64,000 nucleotides of DNA from an uncultured Candidatus Saccharibacteria bacterium. Its GTDB lineage: Bacteria > Patescibacteriota > Minisyncoccia > Phycocordibacterales > UBA2100. Shown here piece after piece: positions 29,444 to 53,514 of this stretch (positions are counted from its first letter, which is position 1; each line of letters opens with the position of its first letter). The stretch lies in assembly GCA_964648335.1 (NCBI GenBank), contig CAZYLZ010000004.1, forward strand, positions 6,189-70,188. Reading direction: 5' to 3'. The translations under genes were made by a program, and so were the position numbers. Below the pieces are notes generated by a model. The model saw nothing but the letters and a program-made list of their open reading frames with translations, made no database searches and was not told where the DNA came from.

Positions 29444-32092
29444 ATGGCTGTGGAGAACCATGATTTCGCGGATAGCACGAGCGTATACTGGATTGACATG
29501 AAGCAGCCACACGGAGGCAAGAGAGAGTTGATCGGAAAGCCCGGTGCCGAGAAAGGGTCATCTGCGCCCGAAGTACTCCCTCCGCTTGAGCAATCAGAAG
29601 CTCCCCATTTTCAAGAAACCATGGCGGTCTTTGGAAAAGCCATATCGAAGGCGCGCGAATCTGCAAACACGCAAGACAAGTACGGGCTCTACCAGCTGCA
29701 GGTGCTTATGCGTATGGAAGAAGCGCTCAAAGAGGGTGTCTTGGATGTGCGAGTCATCGAAGCGGTCCATACGATTTTTAAAGACCACCGCGCGATAAAC
29801 AAGTTTGGCGAAAACAAGGGCGGCGTCATCTTGCAGCATATCAATACGTATTACGACTCCGTACTCGACAAGAGCGAAGCATCAAAAAAGGTCGAGGCCC
29901 ACGGCAATATCATGCTGGAGCTCGCCGAGGCACTTGGCATACCACTGAGCGATCCCGGTCTCATATCGGCCGAAGCACGCAAGACCAAACAATGGCTTGC
30001 GGTTATCCCTAAGGAAACGATGTCCAAAGAGGCACGTGCCGAGTACGAACGCACACAGAGCATGCAGGAGCGCGCTGCAAAACGCGGCGAGCGCATCGAT
30101 GCCATCATAAACGGCCTGTTGCCGCGCATCATGGAAGCGGTACCAACCATGCGGATAGCGAAGGGCGACTTCAAAGACGGAGAACCTCACCCCGAGATGA
30201 ACGAGAAGCTGCAGCAGTTCGCTACAGTGGTGGTCCAGCGTATCAACCGCCAGCTCAAGGCAAAGTTCACCGACATCTCGCGCGCCGACAAGATGTCGAT
30301 GACCGACGAAGAGGCCTATATTCAGATGCAAAAAGACAAGGGCCATTGGAGCGATGACGACTCGTCACGCTGGGACGAGTTGTCGGACGAAGGCAAGGCG
30401 GGCGTCCTCAAAAGCAATCGTACCGAGATACTGCGTATCAAGGACGATCCCACGCGTCGACAAGTCTTTCAGAACGAGTACCTAGAAAAGCTCGCCACGC
30501 TCGATGCGGCGCTCGCAAAGCTCGCAGAATCCGCCACAGGCACCGGCGAACGTATGGGACGGCTCGATCTGTTGCGCGACGATCGTGTCTATGTAGCCCT
30601 CGCTCACATCAAGGCATTTTTTAAGCACACGTACCTTGCAGACGAGATGACTCAGAACGAGAAAGACCGAATCGCAAATTACATGAAAGACGGCGGAAAC
30701 TTTGTTAAGACCTTCGGTACCTACGTCGGCGCAACGTTCCCAAAAACACTGAAGGGCATCGATGGCGCCAAAAAATTCGAAGAAAAGAAGCGCAACGAAA
30801 ACACAGGACTCTCGCTCGATGATACTCCCGAAGAAATCGCGCCACCGGAAGATCGGCTAGAGTCAGAACGATTGCGCAATCTTGCTATCGTCTACCGTGC
30901 CGATCTGGCACGCTTCAACTCACGCTATATCGCGCCAATCCAGCACATGGTCGACCACCCTAACCATCCGTACTTGTCTCCCGATTTCCTGGTCATTTTG
31001 AAAGGACTCATCCCTATATTGCACAAAGACCGCGAGCGGATGCGTACCGGCGCGCTCGCTCGCATAACCGAGGCCGAGAACGGTCCGCAAGACGCGCACA
31101 TCCGCAGCAACCTGTACGCAGCGCGCCTGACGCTCCAGAGCGCGATGATAGGAAGTATCGATCTCGATACCCGCGCACGAGTGCTCATCGAAAAGATCGA
31201 GAGCAGTGGAATATCGACTGCCGACAGCAAACTCGGCGTCACGCCAAAAAGCCAATCGAGCCTAGAAGAAGCATTTGACATACTCGTGGCAAAAGACGGT
31301 CAACTCACGAGACTCTACGACACCTCGATCCACGGCACGATGCTCCAGCTTGCAGACCGCGTCGAGGACCTCCGCAGGGCCGGAATCGACACGGAAGAAT
31401 TACGAAAAATGCGTCTCGCTCTCAAAGGTCTCGAACAGAGCGTTGCCCGGGATTACGCAACGGAAGAGCGACTGCAAAAAATCCGTTTCCGAACTGCCGA
31501 AGCCCAGCTTCGCTCTGCCGAACCATCCGACCGGTTGGGCGAACTCTCCGTTTCGCAGAGTCTGGTCACCAACGAGCTCCTCGCAAACCGTACCGCTGCG
31601 CTTTCGGCCTGTATGGTACTTGATAAGACAATAGACAGGCTTGTTCTTACCCTTCCGAAGGCGGGAACGATGTCCCTTGCATCGCCTATAGATCGGGCTG
31701 CTACCGCGATACCAAAAGAGGAAACGAGATCTTTTGCGCCACCAAGTCCGGTGGCCGAGGCAAAATCAGTTCTCGATACCTTCGATATGGCGCGCAAGAA
31801 TAATGGCATCCAAAGAGATCTCGATACAGCCAAAGCAGCGTTGGCAGCAATGAAAGCAGAAGCGGCTCAGAACAGCGAAGCACTTCGGGAGCTCCAAGCA
31901 GAAGCGAACGAGACGAAAGAGTCTCTCCTCGATCACCAAGAATTTTTGGGTGGTATGACCGATGTTGTAAAATCAACGATATCCATGCTTGAAGCCGTCC
32001 TCGCCGAGGGACATGAAGATCCGAAGGTTCTTTCTAAAGACATTGAAACGATACTAGCTAAGCTCCGTCGCATAAACGAAATAACCGATTAA
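29444..32092 (+). CDS. Large hypothetical protein (882 aa), predicted soluble, alpha-helical/coiled-coil rich. Start codon uncertain.
   Basis: Long intact ORF with no recognisable motif. The start is only 21 bp from the divergent smc start and has no clear RBS. Alternative in-frame ATGs at 29498 and 29621. Confidence 0.6.
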   Translation: MAVENHDFADSTSVYWIDMKQPHGGKRELIGKPGAEKGSSAPEVLPPLEQSEAPHFQETMAVFGKAISKARESANTQDKYGLYQLQVLMRMEEALKEGVLDVRVIEAVHTIFKDHRAINKFGENKGGVILQHINTYYDSVLDKSEASKKVEAHGNIMLELAEALGIPLSDPGLISAEARKTKQWLAVIPKETMSKEARAEYERTQSMQERAAKRGERIDAIINGLLPRIMEAVPTMRIAKGDFKDGEPHPEMNEKLQQFATVVVQRINRQLKAKFTDISRADKMSMTDEEAYIQMQKDKGHWSDDDSSRWDELSDEGKAGVLKSNRTEILRIKDDPTRRQVFQNEYLEKLATLDAALAKLAESATGTGERMGRLDLLRDDRVYVALAHIKAFFKHTYLADEMTQNEKDRIANYMKDGGNFVKTFGTYVGATFPKTLKGIDGAKKFEEKKRNENTGLSLDDTPEEIAPPEDRLESERLRNLAIVYRADLARFNSRYIAPIQHMVDHPNHPYLSPDFLVILKGLIPILHKDRERMRTGALARITEAENGPQDAHIRSNLYAARLTLQSAMIGSIDLDTRARVLIEKIESSGISTADSKLGVTPKSQSSLEEAFDILVAKDGQLTRLYDTSIHGTMLQLADRVEDLRRAGIDTEELRKMRLALKGLEQSVARDYATEERLQKIRFRTAEAQLRSAEPSDRLGELSVSQSLVTNELLANRTAALSACMVLDKTIDRLVLTLPKAGTMSLASPIDRAATAIPKEETRSFAPPSPVAEAKSVLDTFDMARKNNGIQRDLDTAKAALAAMKAEAAQNSEALRELQAEANETKESLLDHQEFLGGMTDVVKSTISMLEAVLAEGHEDPKVLSKDIETILAKLRRINEITD

Positions 32093-32096
32093 TCAT

Positions 32097-33317
32097 ATGG
32101 CTGAAGGATTTAGAAAAAAAGCAGAAGCGTTGCGAAGACTCGCGAAAGATATCCTGGATACGGAACTCACACCGGCCCAGAAAGCCGCAGCTGAAGCGGC
32201 GGAGCAAGAGGGTGCAGAAGCCGAGATAGTCCCACCTGTCGTCGATACCCCGCACGATATGCCAACCGGCACTGCCCCGATAGACCGCGCGCACGACGAA
32301 AACGAGGCACGAAGGGCCGCCCAGGCGGATCTTGCAGAAGCTACGCGTGCGGCCGCGGCTCTCGAACCTATCGCTCCCCCAACGGCAGCACCTGAACCCG
32401 TTGTCGAGGATGAGAAAACAGAACGAAATACAAGGAAGCCGATACGCCGAGTGCGTAGAAAGAAAAGCGATGGACCTACAAAAGCTACTCTTGACGGTGC
32501 CATGCGCTATACTGCCGACAAGGCCCGTTTCGGTCGCGAGATGGTTGAAGCCTGCGGTCGACTGAAAGAGCGAATCGACAAACAATCCATAGTAATTATG
32601 GAGCAGCTCAATACAGCACTGACTTCAGCCGCCGATGGAAGAGCATACTCGTTCGACGCGACGACAGGAAAAATATCAGCAAACCCACAAACTCCAGATC
32701 TGGTGACTGGATATATCAATACAGAAGAGGTCGTGCGCGAACTCGAGGCACTGGTCCGCGATATCCCGAGGGAAATCGAGACGCTCTTCCATACACTGGA
32801 CGAATCGCACGCGGAATTTGTCGGAATAATGAACGGGGAGCCCGAAACAGCAACCCGAAGGACTTTCGCAGAAGTACCGAAAGTCGAATCGAAACCGCTC
32901 GATACTATCGCTGGAGGAACGCCGAGCCCGATTAAGACTTCGCTCGAAGCGGCACTTCTTGCGAGCGCGGACCGAACCGCTTTCCTTAAAGAACTTGTCG
33001 AAGCATCGAATCGCCTCAAAAAGCAAATTGACGAAAAAGTGGTTTCCCTTCTCATGATGATGAAGAGCGCGCTTGCCACCGGTGTCGATGACATAGCCTT
33101 TACACAAAACGAATCGACAGACGCCATCACCCCGGTCCCTCAGAGCGATCCAGTCGCAGGCTTTGCGACACTCGAACGGACTGCGCATGAATTTGCCAAC
33201 GCCGTCGAGAGCATGCCAGAAGAGATCAGACTCCTCATCCAGACACTCTTCGATGCCGATCAGGAATTCACGCGGATTATCAGCAACGGCCTGAACAAAG
33301 GCAGTGCGACTAAATAA
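32097..33317 (+). CDS. Hypothetical protein (406 aa) with an internal tandem duplication of about 130 aa.
   Basis: Repeat pairs FGREMVEACGRLKERIDKQS.../AFLKELVEASNRLKKQIDEK... and ...IETLFHTLDESHAEFVGIMNG/...IRLLIQTLFDADQEFTRIISNG. Starts 4 nt after the previous gene. Confidence 0.6.
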   Translation: MAEGFRKKAEALRRLAKDILDTELTPAQKAAAEAAEQEGAEAEIVPPVVDTPHDMPTGTAPIDRAHDENEARRAAQADLAEATRAAAALEPIAPPTAAPEPVVEDEKTERNTRKPIRRVRRKKSDGPTKATLDGAMRYTADKARFGREMVEACGRLKERIDKQSIVIMEQLNTALTSAADGRAYSFDATTGKISANPQTPDLVTGYINTEEVVRELEALVRDIPREIETLFHTLDESHAEFVGIMNGEPETATRRTFAEVPKVESKPLDTIAGGTPSPIKTSLEAALLASADRTAFLKELVEASNRLKKQIDEKVVSLLMMMKSALATGVDDIAFTQNESTDAITPVPQSDPVAGFATLERTAHEFANAVESMPEEIRLLIQTLFDADQEFTRIISNGLNKGSATK

Positions 33318-33326
33318 CCTACTCAT

Positions 33327-36300
33327 ATGGCAGAATCATTCTTGAGAAAGATGCGCGAAGGCAAAAGCACGGCTGGACCGGCAATGCCGACATTTACCGG
33401 AAATCGAGCGAACGTAGAACACCTACTATCTCCGACCAAGGACATTGAAGCAGGCGCGAGCAAAGAGACGCTCGAGGCGATACAGCGGATAAAGGAAAAT
33501 GCCATACAAGGCATGGTTGCCGATATGAAGGCGGCCGGTATCGAGATCGACGACGCCGGCATCAAAGCCGCCATCGACAACTACGAGAACCAGCCCGGAG
33601 TTAAGCAAGAAGCGATGAAAGCGGTCAAATCGATGCTGCAGTCCCTGCAAGGGAAGACGCCGGATGAGATTGCAGAAACGCTGGCCCAAGACTCTCTCGC
33701 CGTCTTCGAGGCAGGAAAAAACAAGTCAGAGATTCCGCTCGACAACGTCCTGATACCCCTTCTCATGTCCCAGGGCCAGATTCAGCAATCGGCGCTCGAT
33801 AAGGCATCCAAGAAAAAACTTCGCGGTGTAAGCTTAAGCACCAAGAAGCTCAAGACCGGGGCGTTGAGTGCGACAAAGACCGCCATAAGCCGAACCGCCA
33901 TTCCATCGGCATATCTCGTGCACTTTACCCTCGGCGTCGTAGACACAGCAGTCGTCGAGACCGCCGCGAACGGCACGTTTTCGGATTGGGGTCTCGAAGG
34001 CAAGGTCAAAGACGGATTAGCACTCACCTTCTCCATCGCGGCAAATGCTCAATTCGTTAACCGAAAGCTCGGAGTACGAGGAGAATGGATTCGCGGTATC
34101 GGCGACATGGTATGGGGCGATACAACACGTACACGCGTCACCGGTGTCCTCACCTCCGCCCTTATGGCGACGATGGCCCTTGCCATAACTGCAAATACCG
34201 AACGCGGCATCGTAGATTCTGCGGTTTCCGAAGAAGTCGGAATGAAGATGAAAGAGCGCTGGGAAACAGAACGCAAAGCGATGGAAAGTACTATCAGGCA
34301 AGCAGCCAGCCTGTTCCAGACCATTCAGCCGGTAATTGATAAGAAAATGAGCGACGCGTACGTAGCGGGCGGCGTCGGTTGGGGCCCGAGGACCTGGGGA
34401 GTAAACCGTGTTCTCTATGGCAAGAACGCAGAAAGCGATTCGAACTATGCTTCTTTCAAGTCAACACCGGCAACCGCGACACCAACCTTCCGCGGCAAAG
34501 CCATGTCTACCGTAGAAACTCCTACTGCGGCACCAGAAGCACCTGGCCGGCGTGAGGCGGCAGCAGCAGAACTTGCTGCGGCGCAAAAGCGACTAGATGC
34601 GATAAATAAGCAAGCCGAAGGAAAAAGCAAAGCAGAAAAGTCTAAAAAGAAGGCAGATTTAGATGCGGCAAGACTGCGAGTGACAAACGCTCAGGCCGCT
34701 ATCAATGCTCCAAGTCGTGGCACCCCGGCTCCGGGAACTCCCGATACCAGAGCAGCAAAGAGCCCCGAAGAGGTTGAGGCTGCCATGAAAGCGCTCAACG
34801 AGAAGTATGGGTTACAACCTACCGATGGCGCCGAGCAGTATCTTAAAAAGTTGACCGCGGACATTGAACGGGTAAACCCAGAAAATGTGTTCGCCATGCT
34901 CGACTCTCTCATAAAGGAAAGCGAAGTACTTTCGAAATCGGGAATCCTCGGTAACATTTTCGGCATCCTGGCTCCGGTGCCCGGCGTCATGAAGCAGATC
35001 GGAACCAACGTATGGCAAGGCGAGGGATTAGGGTCATTCACTCACGACATCGACTGGTCTGAAACGTTCCATCGAACGTCCGGTGTACGTGCGATTTTTA
35101 AGTCAGAAGAGAAATACCGTAATCGGCGTAACGAGATGGTCAAAGAGCTGAAGAAGGTAATGGTAAGCGCCCAGCTTGATGCCTATCTGAAAGAAGTCTC
35201 TGCTGTCACCGGCATCGACACTGCCATGTCGCTTCCCAATACAAACTTCAACGTTGAGAATGACGCGTTGGGCATCGACCAGACCCCGTATAAGGACATC
35301 GCCAACAAGACCGTTTTCGACTATGTGACACAGATCATCCCTCCCGATGACAGTCCGACGTGGGGTTATATTCAAAGGAGTTTCAGCAAATCGGGCATAG
35401 ATTGGGTGGATGTCTCGACACCACTCGGCAAGAAAGAGGCAATGACACTGCTCATATCTTTTGTGATTCTTCTAATCGGCGGTAGCGTTCTCTACACTAT
35501 CGGCGCCAAGAAAGTGAGTAAACGCTGGGGCGTCATGGGCGCTCTCAAGGATGATGAGAAGAATGGTATCTACAAGACGGAATCGAAGCTCGTCCAGGAC
35601 ATGGTGAAGCTCATCGACGACCGTGAGAAGACGACCCTTGGTGCTATCGCAAAAAGCGGGCTCGATGTTGCCTTGCCGCAGAGAGACAGCGTCGCATTAA
35701 GTGCTGTATTACAGAAGCGGCTGCGCGAACACATCTTGAGCCGCATGAATCCCCCACTCGACCAGACGCCCGAGGGTATCGCATTCGTCAACCGGGAAAA
35801 TTCGCTTGGAAGCCGTAAACTCCGTCACGAGTACGTAGGCAAGTTGAACGAATACATTGAAGGATACAAAAACGATCGAAGCGGTGCCTTGGTTGCCATT
35901 CTACGCGACATAGATTCGGGCCGGTATGCAGAGATAAGCGCCATCAAGGGCTTCGTTGAGAGTTCTCAGGTGCCGGTAAATCGCGAAATGGCGGCAAAGA
36001 ACGTCGCGGACTGGTGGAGCCGTATTGATTCGAAATTTACCAAGACCGAGGTCGAATCCCGCAAGGCAGAAGTACAGAACTTGTATGCACAGCGCGAAGC
36101 GCTTTTGAGCTTGCGACCAGCCATGAAGATCGAGCTCAGCGGATCGATACCGTCTGACGTGATATCACCTGCCGATATCGTCTACACAAACCGATTGGCC
36201 GATATCGATGCCGATATCGCCATACACCACGAAGCGATTAAGCGCATAACCGAGGGCAAAGTAGATGGTCCTGTCGACCGCGACCCGAACGTAGTCTTTT

Positions 36301-37097
36301 CGACCGAACAGGTTCAGTCGCTACAGTCGGAACTCCAAGAGGAAGAGCTTGGAAATACCCTTGAAGGCGCGGATATTACCAAAATAGCGAAGGAATACAG
36401 CACTCTCGTGCAGAGCCTCGGAAAACGCATCGGATCGATGGAAGGGCTCGTATCGCGTGCCTTCGGCGATCAGGCATCCGGGAGCAAAATCTCTTTCGAA
36501 TACGCCTATCGCGACGATCTCCGCGGGCCGGCGATAGTACTCAATCTCGTGCGCCCCGATGGTGACGTGATGACGCTTCCCTTGCGACAAGTAGTCCCGA
36601 GCGTACTCCTCTCTTCCGATGAAGCGATCATGGGAGCAATCGCTCAGTGGTTGCGTCCCGATAGCCAAGAGATGCAAGTTACGCGTCTCTATGCTGTCCA
36701 CGACTCGTATGCGACAACAGTCGAAGAGATCAAAAAAGAGGTGCTTTCCGGAGCAACAGGAGGAATGCTCGACATCGCAGACATCGACGATGCAAAGCTT
36801 GCAAACCTCCAAGACCTGATCCGTCGCAGTGACGTGCTCAAGGTGCAGCGACAACTCATTAAGGTCGCGGACTCTCCCGGTAAGAGTCTCAACCCGGTAC
36901 AACAGAAGGTCTTCGAACAGCCAGACAAGGTTACCCTCAGCGGCATATGGAATAAGGATATCCGCATTACCTTCCGGTTTGCTAAGGAGCGCTACCCTGG
37001 AATCCCTATCAAGTATGATGTTGCCACCGAAGAAGTGGTCATACCTGACCCGACGGGTGAAAAACGAATCAGCATCCGCAGTCCGCAGCTTGGATAA
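33327..37097 (+). CDS. Giant hypothetical protein (1256 aa) with a single central transmembrane helix (around aa 700; LLISFVILLIGGSVLYTIGA) and an N-terminal amphipathic/hydrophobic region.
   Basis: Long intact ORF 9 nt after the previous gene. Shares the start context cATATGGCnGAA and the N-terminus MAE(G/S)F(R/L)(K/R)K with the 32097 gene. No domain recognised. Confidence 0.6.
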   Translation: MAESFLRKMREGKSTAGPAMPTFTGNRANVEHLLSPTKDIEAGASKETLEAIQRIKENAIQGMVADMKAAGIEIDDAGIKAAIDNYENQPGVKQEAMKAVKSMLQSLQGKTPDEIAETLAQDSLAVFEAGKNKSEIPLDNVLIPLLMSQGQIQQSALDKASKKKLRGVSLSTKKLKTGALSATKTAISRTAIPSAYLVHFTLGVVDTAVVETAANGTFSDWGLEGKVKDGLALTFSIAANAQFVNRKLGVRGEWIRGIGDMVWGDTTRTRVTGVLTSALMATMALAITANTERGIVDSAVSEEVGMKMKERWETERKAMESTIRQAASLFQTIQPVIDKKMSDAYVAGGVGWGPRTWGVNRVLYGKNAESDSNYASFKSTPATATPTFRGKAMSTVETPTAAPEAPGRREAAAAELAAAQKRLDAINKQAEGKSKAEKSKKKADLDAARLRVTNAQAAINAPSRGTPAPGTPDTRAAKSPEEVEAAMKALNEKYGLQPTDGAEQYLKKLTADIERVNPENVFAMLDSLIKESEVLSKSGILGNIFGILAPVPGVMKQIGTNVWQGEGLGSFTHDIDWSETFHRTSGVRAIFKSEEKYRNRRNEMVKELKKVMVSAQLDAYLKEVSAVTGIDTAMSLPNTNFNVENDALGIDQTPYKDIANKTVFDYVTQIIPPDDSPTWGYIQRSFSKSGIDWVDVSTPLGKKEAMTLLISFVILLIGGSVLYTIGAKKVSKRWGVMGALKDDEKNGIYKTESKLVQDMVKLIDDREKTTLGAIAKSGLDVALPQRDSVALSAVLQKRLREHILSRMNPPLDQTPEGIAFVNRENSLGSRKLRHEYVGKLNEYIEGYKNDRSGALVAILRDIDSGRYAEISAIKGFVESSQVPVNREMAAKNVADWWSRIDSKFTKTEVESRKAEVQNLYAQREALLSLRPAMKIELSGSIPSDVISPADIVYTNRLADIDADIAIHHEAIKRITEGKVDGPVDRDPNVVFSTEQVQSLQSELQEEELGNTLEGADITKIAKEYSTLVQSLGKRIGSMEGLVSRAFGDQASGSKISFEYAYRDDLRGPAIVLNLVRPDGDVMTLPLRQVVPSVLLSSDEAIMGAIAQWLRPDSQEMQVTRLYAVHDSYATTVEEIKKEVLSGATGGMLDIADIDDAKLANLQDLIRRSDVLKVQRQLIKVADSPGKSLNPVQQKVFEQPDKVTLSGIWNKDIRITFRFAKERYPGIPIKYDVATEEVVIPDPTGEKRISIRSPQLG

Positions 37098-46919: not shown

Positions 46920-48800
46920 CTAAGAACGGTTGATGATAAGCCGAGGCATACCATCGTTACCGGTAGAAAACTGCATGGTGTCGTGAGTTGTGATATCCGA
47001 GGTGACGATGACTTTCTCTGGGGCGGCAGTTGTGACAGGAGCCTCAGGAGTAATCGGTGCCTCTTCGTAAGCTGGCTCGTCGATGATGGTCTCGTCGAGG
47101 ATCATAGACTCGGGGTCGCTTGCGTGAGCAGATGCTCCCACGAGTCCCAAGACCGATCCTGCAAGGAGTCCGCGCTTGGCTACCACGAGGTAGCCTGCGA
47201 CGACCGAGAGCGATACAAGAGTGAACCAGTACATCGCGTTTCCGAACGGACCGAAGTCGATGCCGGTATACGGGATCTGCGAGAGCGATACGTACGGTGC
47301 ACCCGAGACGTTCACGTTGGTCGCACAGGTGGTCTGGCGTCCCGCGAAGTCTGCGATGGTGAGCACGTAGCTGCGCGATGCCTCTGGGCGTACTGCGAGC
47401 ACTCCCGAAGGGTTTACGTTACCCAAGCCGTCAGAGAGCCATGCACGTACGGCACCCGTCGAGTTCCAGGTAAGGTTTGCTGCAGCGCCGTTTGCAATAA
47501 CATTTGGCGTTGCCGAGATCGAGCATGCAAGGTTGCCAGGAACAGGGATTGGCGTAGGAACCGGTACTGGGATGTAGGTGCTGCCTACCACAGTCGAACA
47601 GGTGTTCGAGCGACCGTTGTTGTATACCGTGAGGGTATAGGTACGTGCGCCGTTGTTAGTACCTGGGTAGACGGTCGTGGTGCCCGCGGTCGAGACCGTT
47701 CCGACACCCGAGAGGTTTGCCGAGGTGGCGTTGTACGAGGTCCAGGTGACCGTCGCATAGCCGTTTGCGTTGATAGTAGAAGGGTTTGCAGAGATGGTGC
47801 AGGTAGGAAGCTGGACCGGCTGTGGCTGTGGAGCGACAACGGAAACCGTTGCTGCACACGAGCTCGTACCGCCTGGGCCATTAACCTGCATAGTGTAGGT
47901 GCGGTTGGTGGTGACGTTCGCTTCGGTTCGGGTACCCGAGCCTATTGCGACCTGGCCAAAGCCCGAGAGGTTTGCCTGGGTTGCATTAGTGGTCGTGTAG
48001 CCAATCGAGACGGTGCCGCCGTAGTTTACCCCCGTGACATGCAGCTGGCATGACGGAACTGGGTAGAACTGTGCCTGCACTATTGGCTGTGGGGTCACCT
48101 GGGTGACGCGAGCAACAGTAGTTACCGGAGTGACGGTGGTTACCGGGCGTGCAACCGAGGTTGCGTATCCAGTAGCGCCGTAGGATGCGCCACGAGCGCT
48201 GGTGTACGAGCCGTAGGCCTGTGCACCGTAGCTAGCTGCGCCATAGCTTGCCGATCCCATTGATACGCCGTAGCCGTCTTCGTTGACGTTAGTCCATGTG
48301 TCGGACTCCGCGACGTTAGTCCAAGTATCTGATTCATTGACGTTAGTCCACGTGTCGGACTCCGCAAGATTAGACCAGGTGTCAGACTCGGACTGGTTAT
48401 ACCAAGCATCGGTGTCACCGGTGTTTGTCCACACATCGGAAGCTGCGTTGTCGTACCATGCATCAGAAACGCCCAAATCAGCCCAGGTATCGGACGAGCC
48501 ATCGGTGTACCAAGAATCAGAGTCGCCGCCAGCATCAGTCCACGTATCAGAAGATCCGCTGTCGTACCAAGAATCCGATGAACCCGAATCATACCAACTG
48601 TCAGACGACCCACTGTCGTACCACGAATCGGACGAACCAGAGTCGTACCAACCGTCGGAATCTCCAAAACCGTCTGCGAATGCTATCTGCACCGTACCAA
48701 AAACACTGGCGAACATGATCGTCGCGACGAGTGTGGTCTGTGCTGTTGTTGCCAATGTCTTATACATACTATGCGTTGTTAAACCCTGTAATAGAGCCAT
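46920..48800 (-). CDS. Large secreted surface protein. Signal peptide, tandem SDSWYDSGS / ESDTWTNVN repeats, three Cys-bracketed domains of about 75 aa, ...YVSLSQIPYTG motif plus TM plus KRG, then a 90-aa acidic C-terminal tail.
   Basis: MYKTLATTAQTTLVATIMFASVFGTVQIAFADG signal (alternative start at 48767). Repeats CTISANPSTINANGYATVTWTSYNATSANLSGVGTV...C. C-terminal PYVSLSQIPYTGIDFGPFGNAMYWFTLVSLSVVAGYLVVAKRG. Confidence 0.7.
   Translation of the reverse strand: MALLQGLTTHSMYKTLATTAQTTLVATIMFASVFGTVQIAFADGFGDSDGWYDSGSSDSWYDSGSSDSWYDSGSSDSWYDSGSSDTWTDAGGDSDSWYTDGSSDTWADLGVSDAWYDNAASDVWTNTGDTDAWYNQSESDTWSNLAESDTWTNVNESDTWTNVAESDTWTNVNEDGYGVSMGSASYGAASYGAQAYGSYTSARGASYGATGYATSVARPVTTVTPVTTVARVTQVTPQPIVQAQFYPVPSCQLHVTGVNYGGTVSIGYTTTNATQANLSGFGQVAIGSGTRTEANVTTNRTYTMQVNGPGGTSSCAATVSVVAPQPQPVQLPTCTISANPSTINANGYATVTWTSYNATSANLSGVGTVSTAGTTTVYPGTNNGARTYTLTVYNNGRSNTCSTVVGSTYIPVPVPTPIPVPGNLACSISATPNVIANGAAANLTWNSTGAVRAWLSDGLGNVNPSGVLAVRPEASRSYVLTIADFAGRQTTCATNVNVSGAPYVSLSQIPYTGIDFGPFGNAMYWFTLVSLSVVAGYLVVAKRGLLAGSVLGLVGASAHASDPESMILDETIIDEPAYEEAPITPEAPVTTAAPEKVIVTSDITTHDTMQFSTGNDGMPRLIINRS
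48283..48665. repeat. Imperfect 27-bp tandem repeats encoding (S/E)D(S/T)W(Y/T)(D/N)xGx nonapeptide repeats.
   Basis: Top-strand units gttagtccatgtgtcggactccgcgac / gttagtccacgtgtcggactccgcaag etc. At least 5 SDSWYDSGS copies. Confidence 0.7.
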
Positions 48801-48902
48801 TATACTACTTATAAATGATTTGTCAAGAGCAAAGAAAAGAGCGGCTATAGTATAGCCGCTCTTGGAGTTTTGTCATCATCCGATTCCCAGGTCAACCCGG
48901 AA

Positions 48903-49457
48903 TCACTTCCAGGTCATCTGCGGCATGTCGAACTTGCCACCCTTCTTGCCGACTGGCTTGAGGATGATGCCTTCGCTCGCGGTTCCGGCCCACTCGCCTT
49001 CATAGCACTGCTGGGCGAAGTTCGAGCACGAACGAATCTTGATTACCCCTGCATTAGTCGGGAGCATCAACTTCGCCGTATCGTAGTCAGGATTGAAGCC
49101 GGCCGAATCTTTCTTGTTGGGCAGCACCCGCACTTGATAGCGGATGACGCGGTCGCTGCAGATTGCAGCACCGAGCACCGAACTCTTCGATTCGACCTCG
49201 GAATCGACCCGCAGACGATCCTCGATCTGGTCGATCTTGGTGGTGAACTGCACCTCGATCGGCAGATCCGAGAGATATCCTTTCGGACTCTCGACGAGCG
49301 GTCGACGCACGCCGACTGCGACATACCCCGAGCTGGACTCCGCGACCTTGATGGTCTTGTAGTCCACTTCGGTGCATTCCGGCTTCTGCGCCATAGCGCC
49401 GAACGATGACGTGACGAGCGCAGCGAGAGCTGCGGTAGCGAGAGCGAGCTTGTTCAT
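48903..49457 (-). CDS. Secreted hypothetical protein (about 184 aa) with a signal peptide.
   Basis: MNKLALATAALAALVTSSFGAMA signal peptide at an internal ATG of ORF 48903..49877. Lies in the surface-protein cluster. Confidence 0.5.
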   Translation of the reverse strand: MNKLALATAALAALVTSSFGAMAQKPECTEVDYKTIKVAESSSGYVAVGVRRPLVESPKGYLSDLPIEVQFTTKIDQIEDRLRVDSEVESKSSVLGAAICSDRVIRYQVRVLPNKKDSAGFNPDYDTAKLMLPTNAGVIKIRSCSNFAQQCYEGEWAGTASEGIILKPVGKKGGKFDMPQMTWK

Positions 49458-49675
49458 TGGATTGGTATCCTTTGCCAGTTTCACTTTTTCGCACCCTTCG
49501 AGGAGCGTCTGCAGAGGCCATAATTGCCCTCGACAGATACTCCTCGAACCTCGTGTTTGTAAAGAACGTGCATCCTCTTGCGAAGACCTGTAAGCATCCC
49601 GTGGATGTTCGTAGGTACTAACAAAAGTCGAAAAAATTGGGGTGGGCGGTGCGTACAGCACCGGCCCGACTCCCG

Positions 49676-50110
49676 TCATTGTGCAGCCGTCTTTCGACAG
49701 CCGTATTGCGTTTGCCCATCGGGACCAATTCGCGTCCCGAGATACGTTTGTCCCACTGGGCAGGGGTTTTGGCTTGGAGTTGACCGAGTTTCTTGCGACG
49801 GAATCTTTCGACATCCGTGCTGCAATTGTCCGTCTTCTCCTCTGCGGTAGCCGATCGACTTTTGTCCTTGCGGACAAATGTCGTTTCTTGGCTGCGCTCC
49901 GCCGCGACTTGCTGACCCCAAGGATGCTCCGACATGATCGGGCACCCTGACAATCATCGGCAGATCTGGCGGCAATATTTTTGCCGCTATCAAGAATGGC
50001 TTCACCATCACGTTGAATAAAACGACTAACGCGATAGTGCAGACTCCGACGGTCAAGGCTACTTTTGCGATGTCTCCACCGCCACCGCCGCCCTTTGGAT
50101 GGTCGCTCAT
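49676..50110 (-). CDS. Membrane protein with a Gly-rich N-terminus, one TM helix and two short Cys-containing repeats (CPxGQ...GxRxGxDGQxQxGCRK).
   Basis: MSDHPKGGGGGGDIAKVALTVGVCTIALVVLFNVMV... Repeats CPQGQKSIGYRRGEDGQLQHGCRK / CPVGQTYLGTRIGPDGQTQYGCRK. Confidence 0.45.
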   Translation of the reverse strand: MSDHPKGGGGGGDIAKVALTVGVCTIALVVLFNVMVKPFLIAAKILPPDLPMIVRVPDHVGASLGSASRGGAQPRNDICPQGQKSIGYRRGEDGQLQHGCRKIPSQETRSTPSQNPCPVGQTYLGTRIGPDGQTQYGCRKTAAQ

Positions 50111-50211
50111 TCTATGAGTCCCTCTTTTGTTCTTGCTCCCTTTATTATATACCAAAGAACAGGCATTGTCAATATACCCTGTTTTGGCTAAAGTATGGCT
50201 CTAAATAAGAG

Positions 50212-51351
50212 CTAAATATCGTATGTTCGAACCTCTGCGCTATCCACTGTGCCCTGGTCGTTATCGTTAGGGTCTTGGTACTGAGCACCCTCTGGAAGCG
50301 CATCGTACGAACCTCCCTCCTCACCCCATGGTGCACCCGGCGTTCCTTGGTCGTTATCATCAGAGTTTTGGTACTGCGGCACCCGCAGGCTATTCGGTGT
50401 AAACACACCACCTTGATCATTAGAATTAAAATCTCCTTCGGTAACATAGGTCCCGTCTGCTGTTTCGGTCGTGCGATACGTACCTCCCTGATCGTTATCG
50501 TAAGGGTCCTGGTAATTACTTCCATCTGAATCGCTTCGCACATAGCTATCATCGTATTCTTCGTCGAGGTATCCAAAATAGCTTTCGATTGGCTCCCATA
50601 CCGGCAAGAACACTTCGTCGTAGACAAACTCGGGCACTGCCCATACGGGCTCGAGCCACGAGTACCACGGGTCGTCGACGATTATAACCGGTGTCGAGTT
50701 GACCAACTGATATGAGGGCGAGACGACCGTCAGAGGGCGCGGTTGAGCCACGCTTCCCTGTTGTCTGATTTGGGGCGCGGCAACCGAGTTGTTCGAATTT
50801 ACGACCGAAAGCGTCGTCGCACAGCTTGCGGTGCCCGACGAGTTTTGAACCGTCATGCGGTACTGTGTCGTTACCGATGGGCTCACGATGTACGAGTCGT
50901 TTGGATCTACCGTACCGATGCCGGGAATATTTGCACCAAGTGCATCCTTCGAGCGCCACGAGATCGATGCAGAATTACCGCGTACGATCTGTGCCGGGTT
51001 TACGGCGATAGTGCAGCTGGGCATTGCCGAGCGGACAATGACCTGTGTTGCGCACGTTGTCTGTGCTCCGGAGTCGTCTTTGACTACCAGTGTGTACGAG
51101 CGGCTCTCGGTAGGCTTTACCGTGTCAGAGCCCGAAGCGGTTACCGTCTTTCCTCCCGAGAACACACCAACGATGGCGTTGTTCATGGTCCAGCTCAAGC
51201 GCGTAGATTCGCCCGGTGCAATCGTACTGGGCACCACCGCGATAGAACAGGCGGGTGTTGCCGCCAGAGCCACGACCGGGCCGAGAGATGCCGCGATGAG
51301 TGCTCCAGCAAGAACCAAGCGGGTCGTAAGGAAAGGTAAGCGCATCAGCAT
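50212..51351 (-). CDS. Secreted surface protein with two Cys-bracketed domains of about 75 aa (same family as 4605..6224 and 46920..48800) and an acidic C-terminal region with D-N-D-Q-G repeats. No C-terminal anchor.
   Basis: Signal peptide MLMRLPFLTTRLVLAGALIAASLGPVVALAATPA. Repeats CSIAVVPSTIAPGESTRLSWTMNNA...C and CTIAVNPAQIVRGNSASISWRSKDA...C. Tail ...YQDPYDNDQGG...NSNDQGG...NSDDNDQGT...PNDNDQGT. Confidence 0.65.
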   Translation of the reverse strand: MLMRLPFLTTRLVLAGALIAASLGPVVALAATPACSIAVVPSTIAPGESTRLSWTMNNAIVGVFSGGKTVTASGSDTVKPTESRSYTLVVKDDSGAQTTCATQVIVRSAMPSCTIAVNPAQIVRGNSASISWRSKDALGANIPGIGTVDPNDSYIVSPSVTTQYRMTVQNSSGTASCATTLSVVNSNNSVAAPQIRQQGSVAQPRPLTVVSPSYQLVNSTPVIIVDDPWYSWLEPVWAVPEFVYDEVFLPVWEPIESYFGYLDEEYDDSYVRSDSDGSNYQDPYDNDQGGTYRTTETADGTYVTEGDFNSNDQGGVFTPNSLRVPQYQNSDDNDQGTPGAPWGEEGGSYDALPEGAQYQDPNDNDQGTVDSAEVRTYDI

Positions 51352-51400
51352 GCCCAAAGTATACGTCCTCGCAACAGACGCATTTTCCACGAATGGGGAC

Positions 51401-51445
51401 AAAAAATACCCGGTGCCGCCTACGCAGCACCGGGTATTTTTAAAA
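51401..51445 (-). terminator. Rho-independent terminator downstream of the sortase gene.
   Basis: atacccggtgc-cgcctacgca-gcaccgggtat flanked by A/T tracts. Confidence 0.6.
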
Positions 51446-51448
51446 GAT

Positions 51449-52213
51449 TTATTGCGTAGCGTCTGGCGTCGGATATGCCGAGACAAAGTTGGCTTCGACG
51501 ACCCAGCGCGAGCTCTTTGCTCCAAAGGTGTCACAGGTGCTAAGGGTCAGCTTTTGTCCGCCGTTGCCGCTTAAGTCGATTACTTCTTCGCTCGCATCGG
51601 TCTTGCGAATCTTCGTCACTTGGTAGGTGTAGGTATAGCCGCCTCCGATGACCTCGATAAGCGCGCCATCACTTAGGTCGGGTAAGCCGTTGAAGGCTTT
51701 GTACATCTGGTTGTGCACGACCGGAAGGTGCGAACTATGGCCAAAGATAAGGACATTTCCGACCTCGCCGAGTTTGCCCGACGATGGGTAGCGCACGACC
51801 TCTTTCGTAAGAAGCGCATCGAGTGATGCGACGTTGGTGGTCGATGGATTGCCTACAGGCAAGTCGAGACCTATCGAGCGGATCACCAGGCGCGAAGGCT
51901 CGGCGATTGGTGCGTGCGCCACAACAGGCGCGAGCTCCTCGCCCAAAACCGGAAGCGCGCTGAGTGCCACGGCCATTTCCGGATGCTCTGCCAAGGGGGC
52001 AATCGCTGCAATCTCGGAGTCTGAAATAGTATAGGCCACCGGTACGTCGAAGTCGCTCGAGGCCGAGACGGTGGGCGCGCTACCGTCGACGTAGTATGGA
52101 ACAAACCCGGTCGCGAAAGCGGCCGAGAATGTGATACCGAACAGGAAGAGGCTCGCGAGCATTACTGCGGCGAGATCGCTCGGTTCTTTATGTACTCGTT
52201 TTTGTATGGCCAT
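51449..52213 (-). CDS. Sortase-family transpeptidase (membrane-anchored).
   Basis: N-terminal TM (LAAVMLASLFLFGITFSAAFA), catalytic His (NVLIFGHSSH), TLxTC cysteine motif (QKLTLSTCDTFG) and a downstream Arg (SSRWVV). Confidence 0.8.
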   Translation of the reverse strand: MAIQKRVHKEPSDLAAVMLASLFLFGITFSAAFATGFVPYYVDGSAPTVSASSDFDVPVAYTISDSEIAAIAPLAEHPEMAVALSALPVLGEELAPVVAHAPIAEPSRLVIRSIGLDLPVGNPSTTNVASLDALLTKEVVRYPSSGKLGEVGNVLIFGHSSHLPVVHNQMYKAFNGLPDLSDGALIEVIGGGYTYTYQVTKIRKTDASEEVIDLSGNGGQKLTLSTCDTFGAKSSRWVVEANFVSAYPTPDATQ

Positions 52214-52264
52214 ACGGGTTTTCGCACTGTAGCAGAGACACGGCCCCTGGCTACTGGTACCGGC

Positions 52265-52294
52265 ATATTACCATATAAATGATGCTTTTGTCAA
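52265..52294 (-). promoter_or_regulatory. Consensus sigma70-like promoter for the sortase gene (TTGACA, 18 nt, TAATAT).
   Basis: Reverse complement of tgtcaa at 52289-52294 and of atatta at 52265-52270. Confidence 0.5.
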
Positions 52295-52336
52295 TATTTG
52301 TGTTTTTGGAACCATTCATGCTAAGACCACCATTAC

Positions 52337-52365
52337 TTGACACACGACACCGTATATACTATAAT
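52337..52365 (+). promoter_or_regulatory. Perfect consensus sigma70-like promoter (TTGACA, 17 nt, TATAAT) for the 52414 gene.
   Basis: ttgaca at 52337-52342 and tataat at 52360-52365. Confidence 0.6.
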
Positions 52366-52413
52366 CCCTGCTATATTAGGAGTGCCCCGTACTAGCGAAA
52401 ATTCATACGATTT

Positions 52414-53514
52414 ATGTCCGAGATCCACAAAGAAGTGACCATCGAGAAGAAGAGCACGCTCATGAACGTGCTTTCTATCGTCGGCTTCATCATCATCGTC
52501 GGTATCGGCATCTGGGGTGCGATCAACGCGGTGCGCCTCGCTCCTTCCCTCTTTTCGACCATCGGCAATCCGTTCGCTTCGGCCTCGACCAAGCTCACGC
52601 TCAAGCTCCCCACTTCGCCAGTACAGTCGGGCACACCGTTTGCTATCACCTGGACCCACACGCCCAAAGGCGGCATCTATGCCTTTAGCTACGCCTGCAA
52701 GGACGGCTTCGCATTCCAGACAGCCGCTACCTCGACCGGCGGCTTCTCTGACATCAAGTGCCAGACCGCGTACACCATTCCGGTAACACAAAAGTCGCTT
52801 ACCTTGCTCGGTGTCTCGACCAAGAATCACTTCATGGACGTTCCGTTCGCAGTCGCCTACGTCGGCGCCGACGGCAAAAAGGCAGCAGAGGCTTCGGCGT
52901 CGCTTACCTTCGAGAACATCACCATCGCCCAGAGCCCTAACACCACCGGATCTGTCGCAACTACAACTACCGCTAAGCCTGCGACCACAGTAACGCCAGT
53001 TGTTAAGCCCACCACAACGACTCCTGCAAAGCCTGTCGTCACAACGCCAACAACGCCCACCAAGACTCGCTCGAACCCCAACGGCACGGCCGACCTCGCA
53101 GTACGCATCCTCTCGATCACTGGCAACACCAGCTATTCAAACGGCTCGCAGTACGGCGCGTACGTCGATCCTTCGCAGCTTGTATCGGTAAAGTTCGAGG
53201 TTAAGAATATCGGAGACAAAGCAACGCCATCGTGGACTTTTAACGCAGCGCTCCCAACGAACCCTCCGCAGCCGTTCTACTCGAAGGTCCAGGCGCCGTT
53301 GTATCCGGGCGACCGTGTCGAGTACACACTTACCTTCGACCACATCATCCCGGGCGCCTTCATGGTCACGGTAGACCCGACACAGCAGGTATACGAGGCA
53401 AGCGAGAGCAACAACGTCGTCTCGTACCCAATCGAGGTAAACTCGTACCAGCCGGTACCACAGCCACAGCCCTACTATCCGACCGTCTACGACAACGGCT
53501 ACGGCACCTACTAA
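52414..53514 (+). CDS. Membrane-anchored surface protein with Thr/Pro-rich linker and a C-terminal beta-sandwich (CARDB-like) domain.
   Basis: N-terminal TM (LMNVLSIVGFIIIVGIGIWGAI); TTTAKPATTVTPVVKPTTTTPAKPVVTTPTTPTKT linker; ...ADLAVRILSITGNTSY...KFEVKNIGDKATPSWTFNAALP resembles CARDB. Confidence 0.55.
   Translation: MSEIHKEVTIEKKSTLMNVLSIVGFIIIVGIGIWGAINAVRLAPSLFSTIGNPFASASTKLTLKLPTSPVQSGTPFAITWTHTPKGGIYAFSYACKDGFAFQTAATSTGGFSDIKCQTAYTIPVTQKSLTLLGVSTKNHFMDVPFAVAYVGADGKKAAEASASLTFENITIAQSPNTTGSVATTTTAKPATTVTPVVKPTTTTPAKPVVTTPTTPTKTRSNPNGTADLAVRILSITGNTSYSNGSQYGAYVDPSQLVSVKFEVKNIGDKATPSWTFNAALPTNPPQPFYSKVQAPLYPGDRVEYTLTFDHIIPGAFMVTVDPTQQVYEASESNNVVSYPIEVNSYQPVPQPQPYYPTVYDNGYGTY

Follow-up and report, generated by a model that had tools for sequence, protein, structure and literature searches.

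How does a bacterium of the candidate phyla radiation (CPR; Patescibacteria) hold its proteins at the cell surface, and what would a sortase encoded among repeat proteins do there? CPR bacteria are thought to live attached to other microbes, and to our knowledge little is known of their surface beyond type IV pili. The question is raised by a stretch of 64,000 nucleotides (nt) from an uncultured Candidatus Saccharibacteria bacterium (GenBank assembly GCA_964648335.1, contig CAZYLZ010000004.1), called the window below, in which three exported proteins share one small repeated domain and a sortase gene lies close to two of them. An original prediction on this DNA had described the repeats, the sortase and their neighbours as a surface-protein island. 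We find that two of the three repeat proteins, A and B, end in a common motif, (I/V)PYTG, followed by a membrane helix and a basic residue. With moderate confidence we favour the reading that both are exported, cleaved at this motif and joined to the wall by the adjacent sortase, with a shaft of clamped immunoglobulin (Ig)-like domains presenting an acidic tip.

The three proteins, all encoded on the minus strand, are named after their open reading frames (ORFs): A for 4605..6224, B for 46920..48800 and C for 50212..51351. The features on which the argument rests are listed here in window coordinates (aa, amino acids; TM, transmembrane).

4605..6224, minus strand: protein A, 539 aa, with an N-terminal signal-like hydrophobic segment, an acidic tip, four Cys-bracketed Ig-like domains and a short-tailed C-terminal sorting signal
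5898..6095, minus strand: acidic low-complexity (GGGD/SGSD)n region of A
5595..5795, minus strand: domain A1, aa 144-210, Cys to Cys
5346..5546, minus strand: domain A2, aa 227-293, Cys to Cys, the copy used for the structure model
5088..5288, minus strand: domain A3, aa 313-379, Cys to Cys
4830..5030, minus strand: domain A4, aa 399-465, Cys to Cys
4605..4766, minus strand: predicted sorting signal of A, with the motif PYVSLTQVPYTG at 4731..4766 and a hydrophobic helix at 4653..4730, then RGGH and a short tail
46920..48800, minus strand: protein B, 626 aa (615 aa in the NCBI call)
48273..48674, minus strand: N-terminal acidic, Trp/Tyr-rich repeat region of B, aa 43-176, with 27 Asp, 14 Trp and no Lys or Arg
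47856..48050, minus strand: domain B1, aa 251-315, Cys to Cys
47598..47801, minus strand: domain B2, aa 334-401, Cys to Cys
47325..47525, minus strand: domain B3, aa 426-492, Cys to Cys
47178..47297, minus strand: PYTG module of B, with the motif PYVSLSQIPYTG at 47262..47297, then IDFGPFG, the TM helix NAMYWFTLVSLSVVAGYLVVA at 47178..47240, and KRG
46923..46991, minus strand: conserved extreme C-terminal peptide of B, TTHDTMQFSTGNDGMPRLIINRS
50212..51351, minus strand: protein C, 379 aa, with a signal peptide, two Cys-bracketed domains and an acidic tail
51052..51249 and 50821..51015, minus strand: the two domains of C, aa 35-100 and 113-177
51449..52213, minus strand: sortase, 254 aa (237 aa from the NCBI start), with an N-terminal TM helix, 2.6 kb upstream of B on the same strand
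52082..52108, minus strand: juxtamembrane motif GFVPYYVDG of the sortase, aa 36-44
51728..51745, minus strand: catalytic His of the sortase, in FGHSSH
51530..51550, minus strand: catalytic Cys of the sortase, in LTLSTCD
51497..51514, minus strand: catalytic Arg of the sortase, in SSRWVV

What do A and B share besides the repeats? Both end in YVSL(T/S)Q(I/V)PYTG, a membrane helix and R/K. Protein A finishes with ...PPYVSLTQVPYTG, a 26-residue hydrophobic stretch and RGGH, 41 aa following the motif; the ectodomain of B finishes with ...APYVSLSQIPYTG-IDFGPFG, then come a 21-residue helix and KRG, and 113 aa follow the motif. The candidate substrate stretch around the motif reads ...VSLSQIPYTGFDF.... 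Both pentapeptides, VPYTG in A and IPYTG in B, fit [LIV]PxTG, and each is followed by a hydrophobic helix with a basic residue, a consensus that is the same in related loci. In an LPXTG signal about 30-45 aa separate the motif from the C-terminus; A has 41 aa there, and B and its 43 orthologues have 113 aa and 85-150 aa, respectively.

These ends were compared across 80 genome loci collected around sortase homologues (42-55% identity over the best-aligned segment), with at most 10 kb of flank on each side. PYTG is invariant across 63 related signals, and is followed by an acidic residue, a hydrophobic stretch of about 20 aa and R/K; the extended consensus is P-Y-V-S-L-(T/S)-Q-I-P-Y-T-G-F-D-(F/L)-G-P-x-G-N-A-x-Y-W ... 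A-Y-L-x-V-Y-Y-(R/K)-G-G. Among the six-frame ORFs of these loci (1.1 Mb), PYTG occurs 70 times and precedes a TM helix in 63 cases; the 19 other PxTG tetrapeptides occur 0-30 times each, at most twice with a TM helix after them. A second apparent motif, YPTG with a TM helix, was rejected as an artefact of uncharged (GSSYPTG)n repeats. All 63 ORFs with PYTG and a helix lie on the strand of the sortase, and such an ORF stands downstream of the sortase in 32 of the 37 loci that have at least 8 kb of downstream sequence. Ten abut the sortase gene, eight of them with short classical tails (29-62 aa), and 1-8 copies of the Ig-like domain are present in 54 of the 62 ORFs that bear the signal. By its sequence, (I/V)PYTG has the form of an LPXTG-type sorting signal with Ile or Val at position 1 and Tyr fixed at X, and in A and B it is probably read by the adjacent, unusual sortase. 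The papers found, an incomplete coverage of the literature that leaves novelty unproven, do not describe a PYTG signal or sorting signals of CPR bacteria.

The enzyme was named correctly by the original prediction. It matches the sortase family PF04203 at 2e-17 (63.6 bits against a cut-off of 26.6), and His141, Cys209 and Arg218 are invariant in an alignment of its 25-member clade. Its relatives are labelled Paceibacterota, Kaiserbacteria or Parcubacteria. The nearest solved sortases by sequence are found at E-values (E) of about 0.002-0.006, and two of the nearest three belong to class C. The juxtamembrane GFVPYYVDG resembles the substrate motif (I/V)PYTG; that it might serve as a lid or pseudosubstrate, in the manner of the DP(W/Y/F) lid of class C, is pure speculation.

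What would such a signal hold at the surface? As first proposed, nine copies of one domain are distributed over the three proteins (4+3+2): the ORFs are present, a Cys pair brackets each unit (65-68 aa from Cys to Cys, about 75 aa with flanks), and when every six-frame ORF of the window was scanned with the profile, exactly these nine emerged as strong copies. Aligned end to end, the copies are 25-66% identical in pairs, and both Cys, one Ala, one Gly and one Val are invariant in all nine; the computed consensus agrees with the string proposed originally. The kinship is also apparent to whole-protein BLASTP, with no need for a profile built from the copies (A/B 8e-45, A/C 6e-18, B/C 9e-17). 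Pro-rich linkers, claimed for all three proteins, do join the domains of A (PPPP, PPPPHY, PPPPYY) and of B (PQPQPVQLP, PVPVPTPIPVP), and the linker of C is short. Protein B runs from a signal peptide through an acidic (SDSWYDSGS)n region, a S/Y/G-rich stretch and its three domains to the PYTG module, the TM helix and a long cytoplasmic tail, and it is the orthologue of a conserved, thrS-adjacent PYTG protein in related genomes. The DNA of its acidic region contains 27-nt and 54-nt tandem repeats. Protein C has neither a PYTG signal nor a TM helix, and its tail (199 aa, acidic and aromatic-rich, isoelectric point (pI) about 4) found no family match.

Two further observations concern these non-repeat regions. 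The tail of C (50215..50811) contains four near-repeats (Y/N/D)-(D/S)-N-D-Q-G-(G/T) in a Tyr/Trp-rich, Lys-free acidic stretch, which may be a cation-binding region. The S/Y/G-rich stretch of B (ASYGAASYGAQAYGSY...) is related to the (G-S-S-Y-P-T-G)n repeats of secreted proteins in related loci (L027 2226..2930, L030 10679..11323, L041 10634..11272 and L042 1194..1994), whose gene lies directly downstream of the sortase where the PYTG protein sits directly upstream.

The ectodomains are also unusual in composition. Lys is absent from those of A (0/454) and B (0/471), whose pI is about 4, and across the 63 PYTG ORFs (L001-L079) the median Lys content of the ectodomain is 0.33%, compared with 6.1% in other long ORFs of the loci; 25 of the 63 are free of Lys. 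They are Arg-poor as well (1.1% against a background of 6.3%).

Is the repeat a known domain? The structure model of A2 is a seven-strand Ig-like sandwich with a predicted local distance difference test (pLDDT) score of 96.8, in keeping with the Ig-like module proposed originally and with an independently folding beta-sandwich of two sheets. The database check that had been suggested alongside that proposal returned no Pfam family for the window copies. Pfam and NCBIfam scans of A, B and C left the repeat unrecognised, the best match being I-set at E=0.33, and no window protein rose above the gathering threshold of the Pfam Ig/PKD families Big_2, PKD, K319L-like_PKD, I-set and Big_9. Among 68 diverse domain instances, at most four match any single Pfam family at E<0.01. 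Homologues give scattered, mostly sub-threshold Pfam matches (K319L-like_PKD, I-set, Big_9, Ig_ADGRF3), and two whole homologues exceed the K319L-like_PKD threshold by summed score. No solved structure was found by sequence with the nine-copy profile or with a 68-member profile. The family is not rare: an exhaustive hidden Markov model (HMM) search of 1.84 billion representatives gave 17,771 clusters at E<=1e-3 (clustered at 50% identity, with up to 47 copies per protein) and 7,027 at E<=1e-10, and homologues are labelled 'hypothetical protein' in public sources. In a word-indexed search of 5.8 billion proteins, where short profiles cannot reach E<1e-3, a 76-aa profile of the domain and a 59-aa profile of the PYTG module gave one match each. 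Within the Ig/PKD-like superfamily the repeat forms a branch that has not been catalogued. The secreted PG_binding_1 protein that adjoins A (3386..4138, plus strand) is matched weakly and in part (E=0.002) by the broader Ig-repeat profile and resembles the '...SWSATGATSC...C.GPGG' variant of the family.

The Cys bracket marks out one subtype of this large family. In an alignment of 713 full-length domains, drawn from the 150 proteins with the best scores, profile columns 4 and 69 held both Cys in 340, neither in 216 and one alone in about 10. A minority of the unbracketed domains have a Cys pair at columns 31 and 60 instead, the inter-sheet position of classical Ig domains. Within a protein, either all domains have the bracket or none do: among 131 proteins, 58 are fully bracketed, 73 fully unbracketed and none mixed. 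PYTG occurs near the C-terminus in 33 of the 150 representatives, a sample independent of the loci, and all 33 are fully Cys-bracketed; in the related loci, 102 of 107 domains carry the bracket. In the A2 model the first strand (A) spans residues 3-9 and the last (G) residues 66-75, ranges that would fit a parallel A-G pairing with Cys4 opposite Cys70. On this model, the terminal Cys pair is probably a disulfide that clamps each domain. Joining the first strand (Cys 4) to the last (Cys 69/70), it would put nearly the whole domain inside a covalent loop, from which resistance to mechanical or proteolytic unfolding is expected. Gram-positive pilins gain mechanical inextensibility from intramolecular isopeptide bonds that join first and last strands, and by analogy we expect each bead of the shaft to be inextensible through its terminal disulfide.

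How might these parts work together? In the mechanism that we propose, A, B and C are exported surface proteins of an ultra-small CPR bacterium of the Paceibacterota/Kaiserbacteria type, and their shafts are strings of the small Ig-like domain. A and B would be type-I precursors, held by their C-terminal helix after export, until the adjacent divergent sortase cleaves the Thr-Gly bond of (I/V)PYTG and joins the ectodomain to the cell wall. The PG_binding_1 protein beside A indicates a peptidoglycan wall. Disulfide-clamped beads and Pro-rich spacers would make a stiff shaft that holds an acidic, Lys-free tip off the cell; in A this tip is (GGGD)n, in B it is (SDSWY)n. Tandem repeats in the DNA underlie both tips, whose length may therefore vary. 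Protein C would be a paralogue, secreted and soluble or held non-covalently through its acidic tail. The repeats and their fold, the coupling of the two Cys, the layout of the signal, the intact catalytic residues and the conserved gene linkage are observed; disulfide formation, cleavage, wall attachment and a binding function of the tip are the steps that we infer, and an adhesin role of A, B and C is a reasonable guess.

The tails that follow the helix are less easily placed. In B and its 43 orthologues a variable Pro/Ala-rich linker leads to a conserved end peptide, (T/K)-D-x-M ... G-x-x-P-(R/K)-I-V-I-x-R-(S/N) (for example in L001 13021..14991). A search of 7,723 six-frame ORFs of the loci (at least 70 aa) and 654 window ORFs (at least 50 aa) found this motif 34 times, each time in a PYTG protein. 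Nine representatives (P0003, P0028, P0053, P0063, P0072, P0080, P0085, P0092 and P0094) form a third class, whose tails are 160-195 aa long and terminate in a helical domain of about 70 aa with a conserved sequence, …LDxVIxxAKAxYPxEDGWxxINxER…. The cytoplasmic tails, this domain included, were scanned against Pfam and gave no match. Two further proteins with long tails (L069 6075..7997, 170 aa; L075 4221..7292, 314 aa) have the same FEAGP-type module and abut the sortase gene. A full-length single-sequence AlphaFold2 (AF2) model of B is poor (pLDDT 38) and uninformative on the acidic tip or the arrangement of domains; only its last 25 or so residues, the end peptide, reach a pLDDT of about 70, as a beta-hairpin. 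In Streptococcus gordonii the C-peptide, a cleaved remnant of a sorting signal, is sensed by a two-component kinase (PMC11326707). The PYTG proteins might likewise be a Patescibacteria-specific, sortase-coupled transmembrane system, in which the cut at (I/V)PYT|G puts the Lys-free clamped stalk on the wall and the membrane remnant, with its PRIVIxR or YPxEDGW element, reports on or regulates surface assembly. We regard this extension as distinctly unlikely; if true, it would be a built-in form of streptococcal C-peptide sensing, conserved beside core genes across a CPR lineage.

Where do the genes lie, and is the locus an island? The remaining members of the locus are as follows.

52414..53514, plus strand: protein G, 366 aa, with an N-terminal membrane anchor, a beta-rich domain, a Thr/Pro-rich linker and a CARDB-like domain
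48903..49457, minus strand: protein D, 184 aa, basic, with a signal peptide and four Cys
49676..50155, minus strand: protein E, up to 159 aa, a single-pass membrane protein with two CPxGQ..G.R.G.DGQ.Q.GC(R)K mini-repeats

The CARDB-like protein of the original prediction has a real but marginal match (PF07705, residues 252-337, 24.1 bits against 22.7, E=4.2e-5); its gene is adjacent to and divergent from that of the sortase, and an orthologue holds the same position in 70 of the 80 related loci. The 184-aa secreted protein and the Cys-repeat membrane protein named there are both present as ORFs, and the comparison of gene content with related genomes proposed at the same time revealed a conserved order: gyrB, the divergent CARDB-like protein, the sortase, a variable 0.7-7 kb, the PYTG protein, then thrS and dnaE on the other strand. 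The gene order of the window is exactly this one, and a PYTG protein with a B-matching tail occurs in 46 of the 80 loci. Variation is confined to the genes between the sortase and B. Protein D is a lineage-specific filler there with one positional homologue (L041), no homologue of E was found in the 80 loci, and counterparts of the tail of C and of the N-terminal tip of B, as of D and E, are absent from these loci or nearly so. Signal peptides in the genes between the sortase and B-like genes are found at 24% against 11%, by a crude heuristic on noisy six-frame ORFs that makes the difference too weak to build on. GC content is 0.545-0.568 across the locus and 0.50-0.59 over the rest of the window, except for one bin of 0.446 at 60-62 kb. 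Neither patchy presence nor compositional anomaly, two marks of a genomic island, was found, and of mobility genes, the third, none were seen. Conserved synteny from gyrB to thrS and dnaE, across Kaiserbacteria/Paceibacterota, identifies the locus as part of the core gene order, interrupted by a variable insert, and not as an island gained by transfer. The parts that the original prediction assembled are real; the term island was wrong, and the (I/V)PYTG, TM helix and basic residue that link A and B had been missed. Elsewhere in the window, three consecutive large ORFs of 882, 406 and 1256 aa (29444..37097, plus strand) have an AT skew of 0.19-0.28, unusually high against values mostly within about ±0.1 for the rest, and scans of the 64 kb for tRNA, tmRNA and Rfam families detected none.

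Could the PYTG module never be cut at all? It would then be a permanent juxtamembrane and transmembrane element through which B-type proteins couple the Ig stalk to a cytoplasmic partner, by way of PRIVIxR or YPxEDGW, and the adjacency of the sortase would be a coincidence of core synteny. The account draws on the unusually conserved sequence after the motif, FD(F/L)GPxGNAxYW..AYL.VYY(R/K)GG, the conserved C-terminal peptide that only PYTG proteins carry (34/34), the third tail class with its conserved cytoplasmic domain, and the housekeeping neighbourhood of the B-like genes. We nevertheless judge it unlikely: the same invariant PYTG stands on proteins with short tails (24-50 aa), which are classical sorting signals, and eight of these proteins abut the sortase gene; the motif fits [LIV]PxTG exactly and is the sole PxTG tetrapeptide coupled to a TM helix; and cleaved remnants of sorting signals can have functions, as in S. 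gordonii (PMC11326707). If the signal is cut, the sortase might still link A and B, as pilin-like subunits, into a covalent polymer in the manner of class C enzymes, rather than anchor them singly. Missing Lys disfavours this proposal, on which we place very little weight: ectodomains without Lys lack the nucleophile of the pilin motif, in A and B entirely and near enough family-wide. In its favour, two of the three nearest solved sortases are of class C, and tandem Ig-like domains with a presumed first-to-last strand lock resemble pilin design; against it, the NCBIfam class C model scores 18 bits with a cut-off of 160, and a Pfam scan detected no CnaB or isopeptide domain. A conserved VPYY near the TM helix of the sortase would be, speculatively, the lid or pseudosubstrate of such an enzyme.

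An accessory, horizontally acquired adhesin island for host attachment is also very unlikely. Surface proteins with Ig repeats are often adhesins, C, D, E and the N-terminal tips are lineage-specific, and domain number varies from 0 to 8 between orthologues, all of which would suit an acquired locus; against these stand an even GC content and the presence, in most of the 80 genomes, of sortase, CARDB and B-type genes at the same place between gyrB and thrS/dnaE; mobility genes were not seen, nor was a binding domain identified. That the B-type gene keeps its position favours a core function in the envelope, as opposed to an accessory function. The reading that we prefer, cleavage and wall attachment by the adjacent sortase, has its own difficulties. 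The sortase belongs to none of the NCBIfam classes: the models for A-F/GN give 15-27 bits against cut-offs of 39-166 (class E, the best, 27.3 against 160; TIGR01076 25.2 against 39.35; class C 18 against 160). Neither PF00746 (Gram_pos_anchor) nor the NCBIfam LPXTG model (TIGR01167) matches A or B at E<=1, and the signal of one homologue reaches 17.1 bits on Gram_pos_anchor against a cut-off of 20. A distance of 45 kb separates A from the sortase. Because the 80 genomes are related and share core synteny, the co-location of sortase and signal does not amount to 80 independent observations. Finally, B-type proteins continue for 90-125 aa after the motif; their end peptide and the domain of about 70 aa in the third class are kept there, and conserved cytoplasmic parts are unexpected for a simple, discarded sorting signal. 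All these points weigh against cleavage and anchoring by this enzyme.

What would follow for the study of CPR surfaces? For the sortase-dependent surface proteome of one large lineage, three searchable signatures emerge, namely (I/V)PYTG with a TM helix, a dedicated sortase clade, and a common, uncatalogued Ig-like repeat whose Cys-bracketed subtype tracks the PYTG motif perfectly in the sample examined. They would allow surface proteins, as candidate host-contact molecules, to be listed from metagenomes. The repeat family deserves a profile in the domain databases, and it is a small puzzle in itself that presumed sortase substrates should keep conserved cytoplasmic tails.

Compared with known systems, the locus is a variant of sortase wall-anchoring and not a new class of machinery. 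Its repeat has the same seven-strand Ig-like sandwich as PKD, K319L-like PKD and I-set domains, and its F-G strand motif Y-x-L-x-(A/V)-x-N/G-x-x-G recalls I-set, whereas the terminal Cys bracket of the window repeats is not a feature of those families. GhpA, the grappling-hook fibre of Aureispira (PDB 9flp, 9g8b and others), is likewise a long extracellular shaft of many small Ig-like repeats; it recurred among the structural matches at 18-23% identity with Foldseek E>0.01, a generic, fold-level likeness only, and it differs in phylum, in a secretion route that does not use sortase and in having no Cys bracket. Pilins of the Spy0128 type also combine an Ig-like domain, a covalent bond between first and last strands and a sortase substrate, but the bond is a Lys-Asn/Asp isopeptide there and presumably a disulfide here, where no pilin-motif lysine is present and polymerisation is unlikely. 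As for the enzyme, it shares with PF04203 sortases a TLxTC-type site (LTLSTCD), the catalytic His and Arg and an N-terminal membrane anchor, and it differs from classes A-F in the invariant juxtamembrane GFVPYYVDG of its own clade. A close parallel to A and B is found in LPXTG substrates of Gram-positive bacteria such as the Cna B-repeats, SasG/Aap and Rib/alpha-like proteins, which have a Sec signal, a variable N-terminal tip, tandem Ig-like repeats, a Pro-rich wall-proximal segment and, at the C-terminus, a [LIV]PxTG pentapeptide, hydrophobic helix and basic residue with a sortase gene nearby. In contrast to those proteins, A and B have (I/V)PYTG with an invariant Tyr and conserved flanks (YVSL(T/S)Q upstream, FDxGP downstream), repeats that would be locked by disulfides and not by isopeptide bonds or Ca2+, and a CPR host in which the ectodomains are free of Lys and the cytoplasmic tails often long and conserved.

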